From an uncultured Actinomycetes bacterium (GTDB lineage: Bacteria; Actinomycetota; UBA4738; HRBIN12), in contig CAVPIB010000001.1 of the NCBI GenBank assembly GCA_963704885.1, forward strand, positions 128,001-192,000: DNA of 64,000 nucleotides, written 5' to 3'. Below the pieces are notes generated by a model that worked only from the letters and a program-made list of their open reading frames with translations, made no database searches and was not told the DNA's origin. Shown piece after piece: positions 181-13,890 of this stretch. The position numbers and the translations under genes are program-made. Numbering within the stretch: position 1 is the first letter of the stretch; every line of letters begins with the position of its first letter.

Positions 181-1394
181 GTCGCGGCCTGCGCATACGA
201 ACCGCACGCGCGGCGGTCTGGCTCACAGCTTTCCTCAGTCTGGCCGCGGCGTGTTCGCGCCCTGGTCCATCCGCGTCGACGCCCACGTCGCCTACCGCGA
301 CCTCCAGCTCGGCGCCTACCTCCACAGCACCGCCGCCGCCCACTTGGCGAGCGATGCCGAAAGCGCCGATCGTCGGCCGGATAGCGGCCAACGTCGTGTG
401 GACCGGCGATGAAGTGATCGTGTGGGGTGGCGTCTCCCGAGGGCGGAGCATCGAAGCGGTCGGAGACGGCGCCATCTATGACCCGGCCGATGACTCCTGG
501 CGAGAGATGATGCCCGCACCATCCGGCGTGCTGGGCGGTGGTGGATACGCGGCGGCCTGGACCGGTGAAGTCGCGCTGTTCTGGGCCGGCAACTCGCCGG
601 ACGGGCCGGCCGGGGGCGCCGTGTACGACCCCGCGACCGACAGCTGGGAGCGCCTGCCGAACGGACCGAGACCGCTTGGGCCCCGCGAGGGCTACGTCTC
701 CGTCTGGACCGGCAGGGAACTCCTCATCATCGCCGGAACCCTCGGCGATGGGTTCGTCTACCCGGTGGCCGCGGCCGTGGATCCGACCCAAGGCTCATGG
801 CGGCTCCTCAACGCGCTCGACGACTTCCCCGGACTCATCGCGTCTGGCGCGGTGTGGGACGGGCAGCGCGTGTTCGTGGCGGGATCGCTGTACCTGTGCC
901 CGGAGCAGGGATCGGGATGCACGGATCAGCGGGCGATCCTTCTGGCCTACGACCCTGCTTCCGACCAGGTCGATGAGATCGACCTGACGGACGCGACCCT
1001 CCGCTCGTCGTTCGTGCCCGTGGGCTGGGACGGGAACGAGGTCGTGCTAGCGACGAGCGAGGGCGCCAGTCTCGGGGTCAGGTTCTTCAACCCAGCGACC
1101 GATGGGTGGCGATCGGGAGCCGAAGCGCCCTGCGGGTTCGATCCGGCCGGCTACGGACAAACCGCCTGGCTCGGCGATCGCTATGTGACCCCTTGCGGCA
1201 AGGACCGACTGCAGATCTACGACGCCGGCTCGGACTCGTGGGAGGTCGTCGTGGCCGGCACCTCACCCTTCAACTCGTGGGAGGGGAGCGCCATCGTTTG
1301 GACCGGCACCGACCTGGTGGTGTGGAGCGGGACCGTCGCCCGCACCGGGAACCCCACCCCGAACAACGGCAGCGTGATCACGCTCGGCCCCTGA
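177..1394 (+). CDS. Kelch-repeat beta-propeller lipoprotein
   Basis: Lipobox LSLAAAC, Pro/Ser/Thr linker, repeated VWTG.E.I.WGG and YDPA.DSW Kelch motifs. Start uncertain; a CTG at 177 overlaps the upstream TGA. Confidence 0.75.
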   Translation: MSRGLRIRTARAAVWLTAFLSLAAACSRPGPSASTPTSPTATSSSAPTSTAPPPPTWRAMPKAPIVGRIAANVVWTGDEVIVWGGVSRGRSIEAVGDGAIYDPADDSWREMMPAPSGVLGGGGYAAAWTGEVALFWAGNSPDGPAGGAVYDPATDSWERLPNGPRPLGPREGYVSVWTGRELLIIAGTLGDGFVYPVAAAVDPTQGSWRLLNALDDFPGLIASGAVWDGQRVFVAGSLYLCPEQGSGCTDQRAILLAYDPASDQVDEIDLTDATLRSSFVPVGWDGNEVVLATSEGASLGVRFFNPATDGWRSGAEAPCGFDPAGYGQTAWLGDRYVTPCGKDRLQIYDAGSDSWEVVVAGTSPFNSWEGSAIVWTGTDLVVWSGTVARTGNPTPNNGSVITLGP

Positions 1395-7335: not shown

Positions 7336-8145
7336 ATGGAGCTGAAGCCTGCGGCGGAGGTCGTACGGATCGACGACGCTACTATCACGATCGCGTCGAC
7401 CGTGATCCTTGGGCCGGTATCGCTGACGGTCCACTCCGGCGAGTGGTGGGTGGTGTTGGGGCCTAACGGCTCCGGCAAGACCACTCTGCTCGACCTGGCC
7501 GGCGCCCTCCGTCACCCCACGTCGGGAACCGTTGAGGTCTTGGGCTCCCGGCTGGGGACCACTGACGTGCGCGCGCTCCGATCGCGGATCGGCTTCGTCG
7601 GGCACCACGTCGCCGACGCCATCCCGTCGCACCTGTCGGCCATCGACATCGTGCTCACTGGCAAGCGTTCAACCCTTGTCCCGTGGATGCAGCCCTTCGA
7701 CGAGGAGGACCGACTCGCGGCAGCGGAGCTGCTGGAGCGGGTGGGTTGTACGCCGATGGCCGAGCGGTCTTTGGCCTCGTGTAGCCAGGGAGAACGTCAG
7801 CGGGTGATGCTCGCCCGGGCGCTCTTCGGCCGACCGGAGCTTCTTCTGCTAGACGAACCCATGGCGGGCCTTGATCTGCCTGGACGCGAGCTGCTGCTGG
7901 ACGCGCTCTCTACCACCGCCGACGCGGCCCCGCCCACGATCTTGGTTACCCACCACCTGGAGGAGATCCCCGCAACCACGACCCACGCGGCGCTCTTGCG
8001 CGCGGGAAAGGCCGTGGCCGTCGGTGAGATCCAGGCGGTGCTTACCGACGAGCGAGTCTCCGCGTGTTTCGGGATCCCGGTCTCGGTCTCCTCGTCGCAG
8101 GGCCGCTGGCGTGGACAAGCGGACCGAGCGTCGGCCAACAGCTAG
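7336..8145 (+). CDS. ABC transporter ATP-binding protein (ModF/YlmA-like, stand-alone)
   Basis: GPNGSGKT, CSQGE signature, LLLLDEP, VTHHLEEIP. Confidence 0.9.
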   Translation: MELKPAAEVVRIDDATITIASTVILGPVSLTVHSGEWWVVLGPNGSGKTTLLDLAGALRHPTSGTVEVLGSRLGTTDVRALRSRIGFVGHHVADAIPSHLSAIDIVLTGKRSTLVPWMQPFDEEDRLAAAELLERVGCTPMAERSLASCSQGERQRVMLARALFGRPELLLLDEPMAGLDLPGRELLLDALSTTADAAPPTILVTHHLEEIPATTTHAALLRAGKAVAVGEIQAVLTDERVSACFGIPVSVSSSQGRWRGQADRASANS

Positions 8146-8158
8146 CATCGCGATCGAC

Positions 8159-8539
8159 ATGGGGTGGGATGACGACGAGCGGTATCGACGTGGACGCGAG
8201 AGGTTCCTCGAGGTCCACGATCCGAAGGCACTCCGCTCGGTGGAGGGGCTGGACGACCTCGGGCGGCTGATCATCGAGACCGTCTACGGCGACGTCTACT
8301 CCCGACCGGGCCTGTCAACGCGGGACAGGGAGCTGGCCGCCGTGGCGTCGCTCGTTGCGCTCGGCCGTTCCTCGCAACTCCCCGCACACCTGCGCGCGGC
8401 GCTGCGAGCGGGGGTCACCGAGGAGGAGCTACGCGAGGTGATCCTCCAGACCGCGACGCTCGCGGGCTTCCCGCCCGCCATGAACGCCATGTCCACCCTG
8501 CGGACGATCCTGGCCGGCAAGGAACCGACGGAGGACTAG
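8159..8539 (+). CDS. Carboxymuconolactone decarboxylase family protein
   Basis: YGDVYSRPGLSTRDRELA, HLRAALRAGVTEEELREV, AGFP. Confidence 0.88.
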   Translation: MGWDDDERYRRGRERFLEVHDPKALRSVEGLDDLGRLIIETVYGDVYSRPGLSTRDRELAAVASLVALGRSSQLPAHLRAALRAGVTEEELREVILQTATLAGFPPAMNAMSTLRTILAGKEPTED

Positions 8540-9450
8540 GTAGCAGCGGTCGAGGGCCGAAGGATCCCCGCGCTACCGAGCGACGGGCTGTACCGGAGGT
8601 CCGCCGGCGTGAACTGGACGGCGACGTCTCTCAAGGCTCCCCACGGATCGACACCCAGGGAGGGCCAGCCGTGGATGGCCAAGATCTGGTCGCGGAAGCG
8701 AACGGTGGAGCCTAGGAGCTCCTCATCGGTCACCGGGATCGGCGGGGCGACCTCTTCGTGGGTCGAGGGCGACCCAAGGATGGCAGAGGCAGGCGAGTCC
8801 ACCCGAGCGAACGATGCGATCAGCGGGTCGAGGTCCCTCGGCGCCGCCAACACTGCCTGCTGCGATGGATCGGCAAGGCCCGCCGCCCAGTCCCAGAGGA
8901 TGGCATCGCCTCCCGCCTGTAGGAGCGCCAGACGATCCGGCTTTGGAGCGGTCATCGGTGAGGAGAACAGAACCTCGATCGTGGCGTCTGCTCCCCCCGC
9001 GGCGTAGCAGCGTCTGACGAACTCGGCGTCGCTGATCAGTCTCGCTTCGCCGACTGCGAGTCTCGACACGACGGTCGCGGCTCGATCCAGGACGGCCACC
9101 AACAGCTGACGAAGCGTCGCCTCGTGCAACGGAAGACGCCGCATCAACCCGAGCATCGCGAGCATCACGACCGGCTCGTGCACCCAGTTGGGGCCGTCCG
9201 TCGCGAAGCGACGGGCGGCAGAGACGACGGGGGCGATGTCGGTCGTTCTGGTGGGCCGACGGACGTCGGCGAAGACGCTTTGGGCGAGCCCCGCCTTCAG
9301 CGGAGCCAGGCGGACACCGGAGACGGTGGTCGACACCACCGTCTCCGGATCCACCACGATCGCGGTGCGGTCGACGTCGCACTCGTCGAACCGGCGGATG
9401 GCCCACGGCACCCACCCTTTGCCCTGGAACATCACGACGTCCCCCGGCAT
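8536..9450 (-). CDS. Hypothetical protein resembling a permuted papain-like NlpC/P60 (YiiX/YebB-type) domain with catalytic residues lost
   Basis: PGDVVMFQG..W..WAIRRFD...DRTAIV (the family has SHxxI) and LISDAEFVRRCY (the family has CSExV..xY); C-terminal FTPADL. Confidence 0.5.
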   Translation of the reverse strand: MPGDVVMFQGKGWVPWAIRRFDECDVDRTAIVVDPETVVSTTVSGVRLAPLKAGLAQSVFADVRRPTRTTDIAPVVSAARRFATDGPNWVHEPVVMLAMLGLMRRLPLHEATLRQLLVAVLDRAATVVSRLAVGEARLISDAEFVRRCYAAGGADATIEVLFSSPMTAPKPDRLALLQAGGDAILWDWAAGLADPSQQAVLAAPRDLDPLIASFARVDSPASAILGSPSTHEEVAPPIPVTDEELLGSTVRFRDQILAIHGWPSLGVDPWGALRDVAVQFTPADLRYSPSLGSAGILRPSTAAT

Positions 9451-9542
9451 GGGGTGGTCCGGCGCCTCATGTATGGGCCGGTCCGGATCGGTCTCGCTCG
9501 GACTCCCCGAAAGGGCTCCCGAGATCTCGCCTGGGTCCTGTT

Positions 9543-9641
9543 TCAGTGCCTAGGCCACTCTGCGGTGCCGGCGATCATCAGTGCCACAGCCGCGCCTGCG
9601 TACAGCAGTCGCCTCAACGTGGATCGCAGCTTCCCTCCCAT
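9543..9641 (-). CDS. 32-aa secreted propeptide MGGKLRSTLRRLLYAGAAVALMIAGTAEWPRH (candidate signalling-peptide precursor)
   Basis: AAGGAGG SD 9 nt before ATG; basic n-region, hydrophobic h-region, short polar tail; divergent from an HTH-TPR regulator. Confidence 0.7.
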   Translation of the reverse strand: MGGKLRSTLRRLLYAGAAVALMIAGTAEWPRH

Positions 9642-9692
9642 GGTTCCGGACCTCCTTCTCCGGGCGGAGGAGTTCCGCCCAGGTAACTCGGG

Positions 9693-9721
9693 ACTTAACC
9701 TTGGGGGTCTATAACTGTCAA
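9693..9721 (-). promoter_or_regulatory. Candidate promoter of the propeptide gene
   Basis: Minus strand TTGACA-N17-TTAAGT: perfect -35 with imperfect -10. Confidence 0.45.
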
Positions 9722-9828
9722 GCATCGCGTCACGGCGTGCCCTCATCTGGGCGGGTGGCTGGGGTGGCTGATTCGTGCTTGCCTTGACTCGGGGCTAGAC
9801 TCCGCCGCGACAGGTTGTCCAACGAACG

Positions 9829-11121
9829 ATGATGGGAGGGAGAGCCTTGCTCGGAACCAGGATGAAGCGGCTGCGGCTAGTTAGGGGCATGACCCAGAAG
9901 GAGCTGGCCGATCCGAAGTACAGCTACGCCTACGTGAGCACGATCGAGGCCGGGCGGCGCAACCCCTCCAAGGAGGCGATCGAACACTTCGCCTCGAAGC
10001 TGGGGATCACGGCCGACGAGCTGGCCACCGGCACCCCCGCGGACCTTGGCCCTCGGTTGGAGCTCAGACTCCACGAGGCGCGCGTCGCTATGTCCGAGGG
10101 CCACCTCGACCAGGCCGCCGATGAGCTGGCCGCGATAGCCAAGGAGGCCAAGCGCTACCACCTCGTTCGAGTGATGGCCAAGACCGAGGAGGGCCTGGGT
10201 CTGGCGTGCGAACGCCGGGCAGAGCCGGAGGCGGCACTGGAGCACTACCAGCGCTCCGAGGAGCTCCTCCGCGACGAGCCAGCCACCGAGTGGGTGGATG
10301 CGGTAGCGGGCATGGCTCGCAGCTTCGAGGCCATGGGGGACGTCCGTTACGCCATCTTCATACTGGAGAGCCTGCTCGATCGTCTGGACCGCGCCCGGCT
10401 GCGCGACCCCGATGCCCTGGCCAGACTGCACTCGTCCCTGGTGTTCGCGTATCTGGACGCCGGCATCCATCGGAAGGCCGCAGAATCCGCAGCAGAACTG
10501 GAGGCTCTGGCCCCCCGGATGCAAGACCCGATCCGGATCGCCCAGATGCACATGAACGTGGCGCGGCTGTTCCTGCAGGACGGGCGCATCAACGACGCGG
10601 AGCGATCCCTCCGCCGCGCCGAGGACGCCTATCGACACCTCAATCTCCGCACGGAGATGGGCGGCGCACACCTGGCTCTGGGCTACGTCGCCAGCCGGGA
10701 GGGCGACCTGTCGAAGGCACGCTTCGAGCTCGAACATGCGATCGACATCTTCGAAGACACCGCCAACGAACTGGACCTGGCAAGCGCGCTGAACGAGCTT
10801 GCCAGGGTGGAGCGCCTGGAGGGGTCCTCGGATCGAGCTCGATCGCATCTGGAGCGGTCGCTGTCATTGTTGGGTGGGCGCGACACTCCGGTCGTGGCGG
10901 GTTCGCATCGTGAACTCGGCCTCGCGTTGGCGGACCTCGATCCTGTGGACGCGGAGAAGCACCTCCGAGTGGCGATCGAGCTCTACGATCGCTCGGGGCA
11001 GTCGTTCGAGATCGCACTCACCTATCGCGCTCTCGGCGACCTGTTGAACGACGGAGGCGAAGGCGACGCCGCGTCCGAGGCCTACCGGACCGGGATCATG
11101 GCGCTCGAGCCCACGGTGTAG
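9829..11121 (+). CDS. XRE-family HTH + tetratricopeptide-repeat transcriptional regulator (PlcR/NprR-like architecture)
   Basis: LGTRMKRLRLVRGMTQKELA...YVSTIEAGRRNPS HTH followed by several TPR-like helical repeats; alternative TTG start at 9847 after GGAGGG. Confidence 0.88.
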   Translation: MMGGRALLGTRMKRLRLVRGMTQKELADPKYSYAYVSTIEAGRRNPSKEAIEHFASKLGITADELATGTPADLGPRLELRLHEARVAMSEGHLDQAADELAAIAKEAKRYHLVRVMAKTEEGLGLACERRAEPEAALEHYQRSEELLRDEPATEWVDAVAGMARSFEAMGDVRYAIFILESLLDRLDRARLRDPDALARLHSSLVFAYLDAGIHRKAAESAAELEALAPRMQDPIRIAQMHMNVARLFLQDGRINDAERSLRRAEDAYRHLNLRTEMGGAHLALGYVASREGDLSKARFELEHAIDIFEDTANELDLASALNELARVERLEGSSDRARSHLERSLSLLGGRDTPVVAGSHRELGLALADLDPVDAEKHLRVAIELYDRSGQSFEIALTYRALGDLLNDGGEGDAASEAYRTGIMALEPTV

Positions 11122-11134
11122 GTCGGAACGAGCG

Positions 11135-12994
11135 TCAGCGGGGCGCTGCCTGCCTGGCAGATTCCACGACCTCCGCCGCCAGGTCGAAGCGGCCGAACTG
11201 AGGCATGAGATAGATCCCGGCGACATCCACTTGGCTGAGCTGGGCGATCAGCTCTCCAGCCATGGCGAGCCCCTCGCGCTCCGCCTGGTCGCCCGCGGCG
11301 GCCAGCCGCTCCCGCACGGGCCCGGGGATCACGATCCCCGGCACCTCGTTGTGAAGGAACTCGGCGTGCCTGGCGGTCACGAGCGGCAGCACTCCGGCCA
11401 GCAGCGGGGTCGTGAGCGGTGCGCCCGTCACTCGTTCGTAGGTCTCGCGCAAGCGCCCGATCGCATGGGTCTCGTACACCGGCTGCGACAGGAGGAACCG
11501 AGCGCCGGCCGCGATCTTCTTCTCTAGCAGGCGACACTCGCGGTCCAGATCCCGGGCGTTGGGCGCGACGGCCGCCCCCGCGAAGAACGAGGTGGGCTCG
11601 CCGATAGAGGTTCCCCCACGGTCTCGCCCCAGGTTGAAGCCCTGGTTGACGAGCGCCAACAGCCCCGTGGCAGTCACATCGACGTTGTTCGACCCCTGGG
11701 GGAAATCGCCGATCGACACCGGATCGCCCACGCACACGAACAGGTTGCGGATGCCGAGCGCAGCAGCGCCGAGCAGGTCGCCCTGCAGCCGGAGGAGGTT
11801 CCGGCCGCGCGTTGGGAAGTGAAGCACCGTCTCCACACCGACGCGTTCCTGGATCAACCGGCAAGCGGCCCAGGCGCTCATCCGCATCTTCGCCATCGGA
11901 CTGTCGGCCACGTCGATCACGTCGGCCCCCGCTGTCGCAAGCGTCTCGGCCCCGGCCACCAGCGTGCCGATGTCGAATGACCGTGGCGGCTCCACCTCGA
12001 CCGCGATCACGAACCGGCCGGCCGCAAGGCACGCCTCAAGTGCCGTGGGCGTGGCTGCGGGACGGGACGGGTTTCCGGTCTCATAGGGCGTCGTCGCGAT
12101 CGCGATCGCCGGGGCGACGCCTCTACCCTCGAGCGCACTCGCGATCGCTGTGGTGTGCGCCGGGCCCGTCCCACAGCATCCGCCGATCACCGCGGCGCCC
12201 TGGTCCGCGAACGCCACCGCGTGCTCGGCCACGTACTCCGGTGTGGCGGGATACACGAAGCGTCCGCCGACCTGCGCCGGTCCCCCGGCGTTGGGACGCG
12301 CCACGAGGGGGATATCGCCCGCCACGGCTCGCATGGCGCGGATCACGCGGAGCAACTGCGCCGGACCCTCACCGCAGTTCGCGCCCAGACCGTCCACGCC
12401 CATGGCTAACAGAGAAGACGCGACGTGCTCTGGGGAAGAGCCTAGTAGCGTTCGATCGTCCTTCGTGAAGGTGGCGGTCACCACGACCGCGACATCCGGG
12501 TCGGCATCGCGCGCGGCCGCCACCGCCTGCTCCATCTCCCGCAGATCGCTCTGGGTCTCGATCACGAATAGGTCCACGCCTTCTGAGGCAAGGGCCGCCG
12601 CCTGTTCCCGGTATGCGGCGAACGCGACCTCGGGCCGGACCCGGCCGTAGGGGGCCAGCCGCACGCCGAGCGGTCCCATCGATCCCGCAACGAACTTGGC
12701 GCCGCTCTTCCGGGCCACCCGAACCCCCGCGCGGTTCAACTCCTCGACGCGTACGTCCAGGCCGTGCGGCTCCAGCCGGAAGCGGTTCGTCCCGAACGTG
12801 TTCGCAAGCACCAGCTGGGCGCCGGCATCCACGAAACCACGATGGATACCCAGCACGCGACCGGCATCCTCGACGCTCAACAGCTCCATGCAGGCGCCCA
12901 CCGGAGCCCCGGAGTCGATCAGCGCGGTACCCATGCCCCCGTCTGCGATCAGCGGGCGTCCTGCGAGCAAGGTTCGGAGCGCGGCGCCGTCCAT
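11135..12994 (-). CDS. yitJ: Bifunctional homocysteine S-methyltransferase / methylenetetrahydrofolate reductase
   Basis: DGGMGT, GANCG, PNAG, IGGCCGTGP followed by an MTHFR domain (DSPMA, RGRNLLRLQGDLLG, LSQPVY, HNEVPG). Confidence 0.92.
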   Translation of the reverse strand: MDGAALRTLLAGRPLIADGGMGTALIDSGAPVGACMELLSVEDAGRVLGIHRGFVDAGAQLVLANTFGTNRFRLEPHGLDVRVEELNRAGVRVARKSGAKFVAGSMGPLGVRLAPYGRVRPEVAFAAYREQAAALASEGVDLFVIETQSDLREMEQAVAAARDADPDVAVVVTATFTKDDRTLLGSSPEHVASSLLAMGVDGLGANCGEGPAQLLRVIRAMRAVAGDIPLVARPNAGGPAQVGGRFVYPATPEYVAEHAVAFADQGAAVIGGCCGTGPAHTTAIASALEGRGVAPAIAIATTPYETGNPSRPAATPTALEACLAAGRFVIAVEVEPPRSFDIGTLVAGAETLATAGADVIDVADSPMAKMRMSAWAACRLIQERVGVETVLHFPTRGRNLLRLQGDLLGAAALGIRNLFVCVGDPVSIGDFPQGSNNVDVTATGLLALVNQGFNLGRDRGGTSIGEPTSFFAGAAVAPNARDLDRECRLLEKKIAAGARFLLSQPVYETHAIGRLRETYERVTGAPLTTPLLAGVLPLVTARHAEFLHNEVPGIVIPGPVRERLAAAGDQAEREGLAMAGELIAQLSQVDVAGIYLMPQFGRFDLAAEVVESARQAAPR

Positions 12995-13044: not shown

Positions 13045-13890
13045 ATGACGGGTGACGACATCCAAAGGGCACGGGCGCGCCGCTGGTGGCAGTCGGGCAG
13101 ACCGCTCGGGCGGATCGACCGCGCGGGTCGGTTCGTGAACGACGTCGGGTTCGCGTTGCTGTTCCCCAAGGCGAGCATCGAGCTGCCCTCCCTGTGGGAG
13201 GCGACGACCGACCGGCCCATCCACACCGCCGAGAGCGACTGGGGTCCCGACATGGAGAAGGTCTGGACGTGGAAGGACGAGCTCCCGCGTCGCGGCCTGT
13301 GCTGGTACGGCGAGTTCGTGCGGGGACGCAAGTCGTTCCTGTCGCAGTCACTCTTGAACGACCTGTACCCGCGCAGCGGCAGCCCCGACGACTTCGGGGA
13401 GGTGAGCTTCTCCCACGACGCGCGGCGGATCGCGCGGATCCTGCTGACCTCGGGGCCACAACCCACGGCCGCTCTCAGGGAGGCGCTGGACGTCGAGGGC
13501 CGGGCGGGCGCTGAGCGATTCTCTCGAGCCGTTGGCGAGCTGGGCCGCGCGCTGGTCATAACCAACTTCGGCACGGAGGACGAGGGCGGAGGATGGCCAA
13601 GCGCCGTCCTGGAGCTGACCACCAGGGCCTTCCCTATCCCCCCGAAACGCGACCCCGAGGTCTCCCGACTGAACGTCGCGCGGACCTTCCTGGACACCAT
13701 GATCACGGCCCAGCCGAACCATCTGGGCAACGCCTTCCACATCGGCGCCGCGGCAGCACGCGCGTCCTTCGAGGATCTGGTCGCGCTCGGCGAAGCCGAG
13801 CGCGACGGCCCCGGTTACCGGCTGGTGCCTACATCGACGGCCGCGAACCGCAGCCGGCGATCGGTCACGACCTCGTCCACCACGCCGTAG
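13045..13890 (+). CDS. AlkZ/YcaQ-related winged-helix protein
   Basis: [41 protein letters not shown] pattern; overlaps the 3' end of clpP by 76 nt. Confidence 0.55.

Follow-up and report, generated by a model that had tools for sequence, protein, structure and literature searches.

In the NprR/NprX system of the Bacillus cereus group, the short mature part of the peptide NprX binds in a groove formed by the tetratricopeptide repeats (TPR) of the regulator NprR. Here we describe a gene pair of comparable build in an uncultured Actinomycetes bacterium (GTDB lineage Bacteria; Actinomycetota; UBA4738; HRBIN12). The pair lies in the window, our term for the whole 64,000-nucleotide (nt) stretch of DNA that was analysed (contig CAVPIB010000001.1 of assembly GCA_963704885.1, positions 128,001 to 192,000), and consists of a receptor gene and a divergent small open reading frame (ORF) whose 32-residue product is predicted to be the precursor of a secreted pentapeptide. 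The receptor has the same build and size as NprR, an N-terminal XRE-type helix-turn-helix (HTH) followed by 9 TPR in a protein of about 420 amino acids (aa), and it likewise adjoins a gene for a small Sec-type pre-peptide, although binding of the peptide in the TPR groove is here predicted only. Sequence homology to NprR is limited to the generic HTH and TPR. The peptide gene is divergent, whereas that for NprX lies downstream of its receptor, the phylum is Actinomycetota, and the pre-peptide, at 27-40 aa across the family, would in contrast to NprX be freed by signal peptidase alone, without a pro-region.

Further likenesses are found among the other described RRNPP systems. In Rgg/SHP and ComR/ComS of streptococci, a very short pre-peptide gene likewise sits beside the gene for an HTH-plus-repeat receptor. 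Many Rgg/SHP pairs are divergent, the C-terminal residues of the peptide are the ligand, and in ComS-type peptides aromatic side chains matter. Rgg and ComR are, however, smaller and have a different repeat domain, and SHP and ComS are without a classical signal-peptidase site and use PptAB and Eep, whereas a canonical A-x-A site is conserved in the peptides described here. The Rap proteins of the Rap/Phr systems (Bacillus, phages, plasmids) are the best bacterial structural matches to our receptor, all of them in peptide-bound form (Foldseek TMt 0.66-0.71), and the Phr ligand is likewise a pentapeptide, cut from a precursor that is exported through Sec. Rap proteins, however, are without an HTH and act on response regulators, phr lies downstream of rap and overlaps it, and Phr precursors have a pro-region that is cut by extracellular proteases. 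PlcR/PapR and AimR/AimP likewise combine an HTH plus TPR-like receptor with an adjacent Sec-exported pre-peptide, but PlcR is shorter than the receptor considered here and AimR is structurally more distant. By analogy, the architecture of the new pair recalls NprR, its arrangement and tiny pre-peptide recall Rgg/SHP, and its pentapeptide recalls Phr. Judged by its sequence, the receptor is not a member of any known RRNPP family.

Bernard et al. 2023 (PMC10075063) searched 7,974 genomes of Firmicutes and 47,982 of viruses, and state that Actinomycetota typically signal with small molecules. An RRNPP pair is defined there as a TPR receptor of 250-500 aa with an adjacent SignalP-positive peptide of 10-100 aa, a working definition that the window pair would fit. 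A mycobacterial preprint (10.1101/2024.03.06.583649) remarks only that RRNPP receptors also contain TPR domains, and PMC12224297 proved not to bear on the question. The initial annotation of the locus named no characterised system of this type as known in Actinomycetota, and our literature search, with supplements and most subscription journals outside its reach, likewise found no description of RRNPP-type modules in Actinomycetota or Streptomyces.

A small gene is co-inherited with the receptor gene

A scan of 185,579 species genomes with the receptor alignment returned 121 relatives, of which the best 80 were kept; 79 of these have upstream DNA. The 80 records are made up of 76 uncultured metagenome-assembled genomes titled Actinomycetota, Actinomycetes or Actinobacteria, 2 Streptomyces, and the records of loci L049 and L057 ('Bacterium HR12'; L and G numbers are our handles for loci and genomes). 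With actinobacterial titles on 78 of the 80 records, the family does not have the host range of Bacillota and mobile elements. The L049 bin is labelled Candidatus Velamenicoccus archaeovorus (Omnitrophota) and holds an actinobacterial-type receptor (59% identity) with an NWPKT peptide; the contig has probably been mis-binned.

A small ORF is divergent from the receptor gene at 56 of the 79 loci. The expectation, raised when the locus was first annotated, that receptor homologues would adjoin small ORFs with recognisable tails is thereby borne out, since at these 56 loci the ORF codes for 27-40 aa and carries a Trp/Phe-Pro tail. The count leaves out a first match at L039, which was rejected as a false match because it is not signal-like, and includes L059 and L112, which the second regular expression had missed; the start at L072 is uncertain. 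The L036 peptide is identical to that of L006 and may come from the same unpublished genome, and without L036 the count is 55 of 78. Among relatives of the window genome, a divergent small ORF bearing a Shine-Dalgarno (SD) sequence is present at 18 of the 19 loci with upstream DNA. This second set, many of whose genomes are shared with the 79-locus set, contains orthologues 58-71% identical to the window receptor and distant ones at 28-34%. L020 is without upstream DNA, and two of the genomes, G008 (L006) and G029 (L019), are unpublished; no conclusion depends on them.

The association is specific to the receptor loci. A strict detector, requiring an SD, K/R residues, a stretch of hydrophobic residues, [WFY]P and then a short tail, found a match in 53 of the 80 divergent intervals and only 5 matches in the 849,372 strand-nt that make up the rest of these loci, a background of 0.0044 per equal interval and an enrichment of about 150-fold. 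Across the 185,579 species genomes, DNA encoding exactly A-G-x-A-N-W-P-x-H-stop was found 14 times, 9 of them at receptor loci. None of the other five matches (in Planctomycetales, Burkholderiales, Mycolicibacterium, Janthinobacterium and a proteobacterium) is a signal-like ORF.

The small ORF at 9543-9641 on the minus strand is a real gene that is co-inherited with the receptor. Its strong SD, AAGGAGG, was already pointed out in the initial annotation, and the 32-codon gene that follows it is conserved: start, stop, length and SD are all preserved within the genus, while the codon for Ala27 appears in all four synonymous forms among 7 genus orthologues. A purine-rich, SD-like run also lies 5' of the small ORF at other loci. 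The differences between the small ORFs are without a third-position excess, as might suit a chance frame or a non-coding leader in a region where the promoter DNA or RNA is the conserved feature. We regard this explanation as scarcely credible, since frame, length, start, stop and SD are kept down to about 30% receptor identity while the DNA diverges, the protein motif is kept with synonymous codon changes, and the motif is strongly enriched over background. Among the sequencing runs listed as containing this stretch, eight were of DNA, with small shares, and none was of RNA. Several of these small ORFs are already present in public gene calls, always named 'hypothetical protein', and no Pfam or NCBIfam family covers the pre-peptides. 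Two N-terminal models, for the 'SpoV family signaling peptide' (E 0.0072) and for Phr (E 0.078), each gave a stray single-member match that reflects signal-peptide likeness and is not significant.

Some receptors stand alone. Those at L046, L048 and L050, at L057 and L058, and at L071, L073 and L074 are nested in peptide-bearing clades and have lost the divergent ORF. ORF-less receptors are abutted by a molybdopterin oxidoreductase, an FAD oxidoreductase or an ORF that looks cysteine-synthase-like in sequence. In five ORF-less genomes, the peptide profile turned up no WP-type ORF at any other site, and one of the five gave non-WP look-alikes. The ORF-less receptors may be listen-only orphans. 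At L013 (G004:C8 125367-126643) the receptor orthologue is split over three overlapping frames, seemingly through frameshift of the gene or assembly errors, and the adjoining small ORF is intact.

The pre-peptides consist of a predicted signal peptide and a short tail

The window pre-peptide is laid out as an n-region (M1-R11, with four K/R), an h-region (L12-I23) and a c-region (A24-G-T-A27), leaving E28-W-P-R-H32 as the predicted mature tail. The locus had been annotated as encoding a signal peptide plus a tail of 5-7 aa, and the von Heijne (-3,-1) rule, applied by script, agrees in placing the signal-peptidase site directly before EWPRH.

The same anatomy recurs across a set of 56 distinct peptides, whose length is 27-40 aa (median 32). 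K/R residues in the n-region number 3 at the median, and the core is uncharged, with D/E absent before the site in 52 of the 56. At the A-G-x-A site, position -1 is A in 53, S in 2 and G in 1, so that a small residue (A/S/G) is found in 56/56, and position -3 is G in 38, A in 12, V in 3, S in 2 and D in 1, a small residue (G/A/V/S) in 55/56. The site is followed by a variable residue (N24, G8, S7, P5, E4, D3 and others), an aromatic (W43, F12, Y1) and an invariant Pro. In 36 of the 56 peptides the piece after the Ala is five residues long, with the pattern x-[W/F/Y]-P-x-x. Pre-peptide anatomy of this kind fits processing by signal peptidase. In a quick IQ-TREE tree of the receptors, from which rows shorter than 300 aa were left out (L080, L088, L095, L100), the tail classes track the receptor clades, and the tails of sister clades include KWPWG, SFPWH, xWP plus 12 residues ending GGxPCC, and PFPxCCG(G).

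Tails with Cys-Cys take several forms, xWP-(12 aa)-GGxPCC, PFPxCCG(G) and HWPKCC, some with a doubled WP motif (NWPLNLIGWPEC). They are 17 residues long in L064-L070 and L086, and are also found in L059, L076, L093, L096 and L100 and in L087 and L090. The terminal His or Cys-Cys might be concerned with metal binding, disulfide formation or modification. Tails that end in His, or in Cys-Cys in the sister clades, after an invariant aromatic-Pro would be in keeping with a precursor whose product is modified or binds metal (a ribosomally synthesised and post-translationally modified peptide, RiPP, or a metallophore), with the XRE-TPR protein as regulator of the pathway. In the 80 loci, however, conservation beside the pair does not extend to any modifying enzyme, dedicated exporter or protease, and the N-terminal part of the peptides resembles a Sec signal and not a RiPP leader, so we hold such a role to be very improbable.

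The peptide tail is predicted to bind in the TPR groove

The initial annotation proposed co-folding of receptor and peptide as a check on the pairing. We co-folded the TPR part of the receptor (residues 72-430; residue numbers follow the 430-aa ORF) with the whole pre-peptide, each with its own alignment of 40. Three runs gave ipSAE values of 0.70, 0.74 and 0.74, against 0.00, 0.01 and 0.00 for three controls, with at least 61% of contacts in common between runs and a partner pLDDT of at least 52. Of 80 solved complexes, 58 reach the mark used for such co-folds, as do 2 of 110 mismatched pairs; these calibration counts are only rough here because own alignments were used. Residues 25-32 (GTAEWPRH) are the only part of the pre-peptide that contacts the receptor, and they are stretched along the TPR groove in the model. 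W29 is predicted to lie near R246, A283, Y286, L209 and F206, P30 near G279, L282, S319, D316 and M242, E28 near S319, N322, E323, V355 and G358, and H32 near Q239, M242 and G279. The Asn residues at TPR repeat positions to which the initial annotation drew attention (in MHMNVA and ALNELA) are N243 and N322, and both are touched in the predicted interface; of 40 receptors, 32 keep N243 and 26 keep N322, and all have E323 and A264. The conserved tail is predicted from these models to be the part of the pre-peptide that binds the groove.

It had also been anticipated that the tails would vary together with the receptors. We examined 25 receptor-peptide pairs with a 5-residue tail, leaving out L084 (long branch, odd make-up) and noting that L036 is possibly unpublished, and found that two variable tail positions covary with predicted contact columns. 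A last tail residue of His goes with receptor G279 in 20/20 pairs, while last residues K, S, G, T and T go with A, H, Y, H and Y at position 279 (5/5, in at least two separate clades). Column 279 has the joint-highest mutual information of the 430 columns and is one of the three predicted contacts of residue 32. Column 358, a predicted contact of residue 28, ranks second of 430 for the first tail residue scored as N or not: N goes with W at 358, E/D with G or R, G with Y or L, and S with E, the exception being P, which keeps W.

The receptor has an XRE-TPR architecture and a fold compatible with an RRNPP receptor

Profile matches to HTH_31 (4e-9) and HTH_3 (3e-6) over residues 8-66, to TPR_12 (1.7e-13) and to further TPR families uphold the domain make-up given in the initial annotation. 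The length of 430 aa given there is probably too great: the true start is probably the TTG at 9847, giving 424 aa, because orthologues open M-I-G-T-R there and GGGAGGGAG (9835-9843) would be the SD. No hydrophobic N-terminal segment is seen in the receptor sequence. The AF2 model (mean pLDDT 93.3, pTM 0.85) has five HTH helices and 18 TPR helices (residues 73-425).

Foldseek ranks peptide-bound Rap structures highest by TM-score (8rtc_A, TMq 0.60/TMt 0.71; 4gyo_B, 0.61/0.71), with the PlcR-PapR7-DNA complex (3u3w_A) at rank 50. The best bacterial VIA matches are likewise Rap structures: 8rsv_B (Z 26.9, root-mean-square deviation (rmsd) 5.5, 348 aligned), 4i9c_A (Z 26.8) and 4gyo_A (Z 25.6). 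Close behind come apo NprR (5dbk_A; Z 25.5, rmsd 5.9, 348/355 aligned) and, lower, NprR-NprX (4gpk_G; Z 22.3) and AimR (Z about 21, rmsd 9.2). MalT domain III, at Z 25.3, is level with Rap and NprR; the TPR_MalT model gives the receptor 23.5 bits, under its cut-off of 45. A PDB profile search returned designed and eukaryotic TPR proteins, AfsR, and PlcR by the HTH alone. The fold fits an RRNPP receptor but cannot single one out. Any 9-TPR superhelix scores high.

A candidate signalling cycle

We consider it fairly probable that the pair forms an RRNPP-like cycle in Actinomycetota, a divergent two-gene module whose pentapeptide is matured by signal peptidase. The 32-aa product would be a pre-peptide consisting almost wholly of a Sec signal peptide. 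Signal peptidase I would cut after A-G-T-A27 and free the pentapeptide EWPRH outside the cell, an oligopeptide permease would return EWPRH to the cytoplasm, and there the divergently encoded XRE-HTH regulator would bind it in the concave groove of its 9 TPR. Binding would alter the action of the regulator at the shared promoter region, which would drive the receptor gene, the peptide gene and, in this genus, a downstream YaeF-like gene. Export, cleavage and re-import are parts of the cycle that we infer, as are the sign of regulation (activation or repression) and the regulon. Machinery for it is encoded in the genome, which has seven SBP_bac_5 (Opp/Dpp-type) genes and 2-3 S26 signal peptidases. 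An analogous peptide-signalling circuit had been suggested in the initial annotation, and that prediction now draws support from co-occurrence, the signal-peptidase site, the co-fold and the covariation.

Binding of the tail is predicted whatever the route of the peptide, and the pre-peptide is unusually short, 27 of its 32 residues being signal peptide. Both points would suit a peptide that binds the receptor other than as a diffusible population signal, by tethering or titration by the pre-peptide or through self-sensing of the state of secretion or the envelope. The N-terminal K/R should, however, turn the tail outward, away from a cytoplasmic receptor, and the conserved signal-peptidase site argues for release, with Opp-type binding proteins present; a non-diffusible mode of action is in our view distinctly unlikely.

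A number of observations weigh against the proposed cycle. There is no small ORF at 23 of the 79 loci. Differences in the small ORF by codon position number 200/156/196, so that the third position is not in excess, and codon pairs are non-synonymous in 247 cases and synonymous in 112. The N-terminal two thirds of the pre-peptide change quickly, as signal peptides do, and the codon-position pattern fits a fast-evolving signal peptide and not classic purifying selection over the whole ORF. The RRNPP-specific Pfam and NCBIfam models gave no match to the receptor at E up to 0.1. PlcR was the sole RRNPP protein in the PDB profile search, at E 2.7e-10 over profile positions 3-55, which cover the HTH only, and the top VIA fold matches are eukaryotic, an APC/C subunit (Z 32.0, rmsd 4.0, 351 aligned) and APPBP2 (Z 30.4). 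The co-fold may owe its pass to memory of solved RRNPP-peptide complexes, and the interface columns are no more conserved than the remaining TPR domain (0.577 vs 0.567, p 0.45). For the fourth tail residue, no contact column is in the top 12 by mutual information, and R319 is changed to S in both receptors with E/D-first peptides, which is not an obvious charge match. The covariation is supportive and not proof, because the tests were framed after the table had been seen and kin are not independent. Look-alike ORFs (AG.A-HWKV, AAGA-GWRNY) lie elsewhere in the genome beside a histidine kinase and a DUF5317 membrane protein, away from TPR receptors, and the peptide form is therefore not tied to TPR receptors alone. 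Finally, a Trp ending a hydrophobic helix would also be expected of a plain membrane anchor.

Several of these points would suit a small protein that is a stable single-pass membrane protein (N-in, C-out), merely controlled by the XRE-TPR regulator, with no contact between the two and the TPR domain sensing something else. Its core is of transmembrane length with a Trp at the end, similar ORFs occur beside histidine kinase and DUF5317 proteins without a TPR receptor, and conservation at the interface does not exceed that of the remaining domain. However, the conserved part of the protein is not the helix but the A-G-x-A site and the 5-residue tail, the small residues at -1 and -3 are those that signal peptidase needs, the co-fold beats its controls with the tail alone touching the receptor, and columns 279 and 358 covary with the tail. 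We therefore judge a membrane-anchored product to be rather unlikely and favour the released pentapeptide.

The shared intergenic region

The divergent pre-peptide and receptor ORFs are 188 nt apart (features of the locus are collected in Table 1). On the minus strand, TTGACA (9716-9721) is followed after 17 nt by TTAAGT (9693-9698), and TTGAC and GACTTAAC are unchanged in 7/7 genus loci. GTTACC aligns with a GTTACAT block that is kept across the entire xWPxx clade (23 loci; on the plus strand, ATGTAAC passes the 80% line). These conserved blocks may serve as -35, -10 or operator elements of the pre-peptide gene, and TAGACT is a putative -10 of the receptor gene. The TTGACA hexamer of the promoter first annotated for the peptide gene is present; a simple sigma-70 scan and a terminator scan over 8400-11300 called no site, in the case of the sigma-70 scan because the pre-peptide -10 is weak. 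An operator palindrome was sought in 9600-9860, and short repeats only were found; no palindrome is conserved across loci. A direct repeat, ACTCGGGRCT, lies near both -10-like sites. Another of these repeats is a perfect 10-nt inverted repeat, ATGGGAGGGA, with one copy at the start of the pre-peptide ORF (9632-9641) and the other in the start region of the receptor ORF (9832-9841).

Table 1. Features of the divergent locus, in window coordinates, and related Streptomyces loci
Feature	Position	Strand	Remarks
304-aa gene, weak YaeF-type permuted papain-like likeness	8536..9450	-	NF008552 E 0.0012, far below cut-off
Pre-peptide gene	9543..9641	-	32 codons + stop (stop 9543-9545); product MGGKLRSTLRRLLYAGAAVALMIAGTAEWPRH
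Shine-Dalgarno AAGGAGG of pre-peptide gene	9651..9657	-	ATG 9 nt further on
Conserved promoter-region blocks of pre-peptide gene	9682..9721	-	TTGACA 9716-9721, GGTTAAGTC 9692-9700, GTTACC 9682-9687
TAGACT, -10-like hexamer (TANNNT) 5' of receptor gene	9796..9801	+	TTAC[AC]CT at same place in other genera
Receptor gene, XRE-type HTH (residues 8-66) + 9 TPR (72-430)	9829..11121	+	430-aa ORF
TPR superhelix, residues 72-430	10042..11118	+	Co-fold interface, column conservation, covariation
Predicted groove residues of receptor			E128, R164, F206, Q239, M242, N243, R246, G279, A283, Y286, D316, S319, N322, E323, V355, G358, Y386
Streptomyces XRE-TPR loci	L157-L236 (receptor at 701-1957); also L136-L156		

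Neighbouring genes

Neighbour genes were called with an ORF caller based on GC content at third codon positions (GC3). No third gene shared across clades is conserved beside the pair in the 80 loci, and the conserved unit is therefore the pair of receptor and small ORF. Neighbours are unrelated housekeeping or metabolic genes, such as those for IspH, an aminotransferase, ADH, a luciferase-like oxidoreductase and an EamA transporter. The left neighbour is often convergent, with some 3' ends overlapping, so that the small ORF is monocistronic at those loci. Where it is not convergent it is clade-specific: YaeF-like in this genus, and elsewhere a DUF5317 membrane protein or small unknown proteins. 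We considered whether the small ORF could be an upstream leader ORF of a downstream operon, a reading at odds with the many loci whose next gene is convergent.

In the window, the 304-aa gene lies 92 nt 3' of the pre-peptide gene on the same strand, with no terminator-like site called. It is conserved in this genus only, at 39-42% identity in 6 full-length loci (L002-L006, L008) and at 45% identity across a 130-residue piece in L013, and its product matches no Pfam family. It may be co-transcribed with the pre-peptide gene and a target of the regulator. Other window neighbours are a fused homocysteine S-methyltransferase and MTHFR-like protein of 619 aa (11135-12994, minus strand), an AlkZ-related protein (13045-13890, plus strand) and an ABC ATPase (7336-8145, plus strand); no link of these to the pair was seen. 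The DUF5317 membrane protein directly follows the pre-peptide ORF at L087 (1568-2173), L090 (1552-2115) and L093 (1672-2178), on the minus strand in each case (E 4e-21 to 2e-27).

Look-alike peptides beside membrane sensors

Two kinds of look-alike ORF occur elsewhere in the window's own genome. One, ending AGGA-HWKV, is found in L114 (1492-1599, minus strand; G000:C1 at about 392.9 kb) and is convergent with the gene for a HisKA_3/HATPase sensor kinase bearing a MASE9-like membrane domain; the version in G041 (L120) ends AGSA-HWKL. The HWKV-type ORF and the kinase may form a peptide/two-component pair. The others are tandem ORFs ending GWRNY and GWRNG (L115, 1498-1587 and 1818-1922, plus strand) beside a DUF5317 gene (798-1340, minus strand). 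Both are preceded by a conserved block and trailed by a GC-rich hairpin of their own, and what looks from the sequence like a tRNA gene follows. The arrangement of tandem ORFs and DUF5317 is repeated in G041 (L121), with tails KWKV and GWKV. Taken with the DUF5317 genes at L087, L090 and L093, the arrangements in L115 and L121 mean that two independent contexts link these peptides with DUF5317. The literature search found no paper on DUF5317.

Relatives in Streptomyces and the wider family

Two Streptomyces receptors are 39-40% identical to the window receptor. Of 151 Streptomyces genomes sampled, 90 have the XRE-TPR gene, and species-level records with it number at least 566, among them S. 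coelicoflavus NBRC 15399, S. canus and S. longwoodensis DSM 41677. A divergent small ORF accompanies the gene at 18/20 and 67/80 of the loci examined. The product of this ORF has a strongly conserved signal peptide ending ...LLAANAGPARA, followed by a tail that is mostly of 12-30 residues and has no WP motif. The tails are specific to subgroups and recur within them, examples being ...VADSR, ...TAERH, ...VEAAVR and ...VERTGK. A literature search found no paper on this Streptomyces pair. In the ESM Atlas there are at least ten clusters of HTH_3 plus TPR_12 proteins of 424-478 aa, all with generic names, and among the ten clusters listed the commonest phylum is Actinomycetota in nine and Armatimonadota in one.

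It is possible, though we would not yet call it probable, that Actinomycetota have their own large family of RRNPP-type receptors with minimal pre-peptides for which signal peptidase alone suffices, and that peptide quorum sensing is general in the phylum alongside gamma-butyrolactones. The receptors of such a family (XRE-HTH plus 9 TPR, about 420-460 aa) would have arisen apart from the Bacillota families or be very anciently shared with them. The family would span lineages from uncultured soil and sediment bacteria (xWPxH, KWPWG, ...PCC) to hundreds of Streptomyces species, and the HWKV and GWRNY pre-peptides would supply sensors in the membrane, namely a MASE9-type histidine kinase and DUF5317.

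Concrete and cheap experimental targets are at hand in the predicted pentapeptide and in groove positions 279 and 358, which covary with the tail, and the Streptomyces relatives, with their many records and accompanying small ORFs, make the idea directly testable in culturable strains. For signals of this kind, no simpler route to the mature form would be known than a minimal pre-peptide made up of little more than a signal peptide and five further residues. RRNPP signalling is treated as a speciality of the Bacillota, and a module of this type in Actinomycetota would extend it. If the reading is true, the phylum that supplies most antibiotics would have genetically encoded, easily synthesised signals, and the Streptomyces pairs would be possible new handles on silent gene clusters or development.

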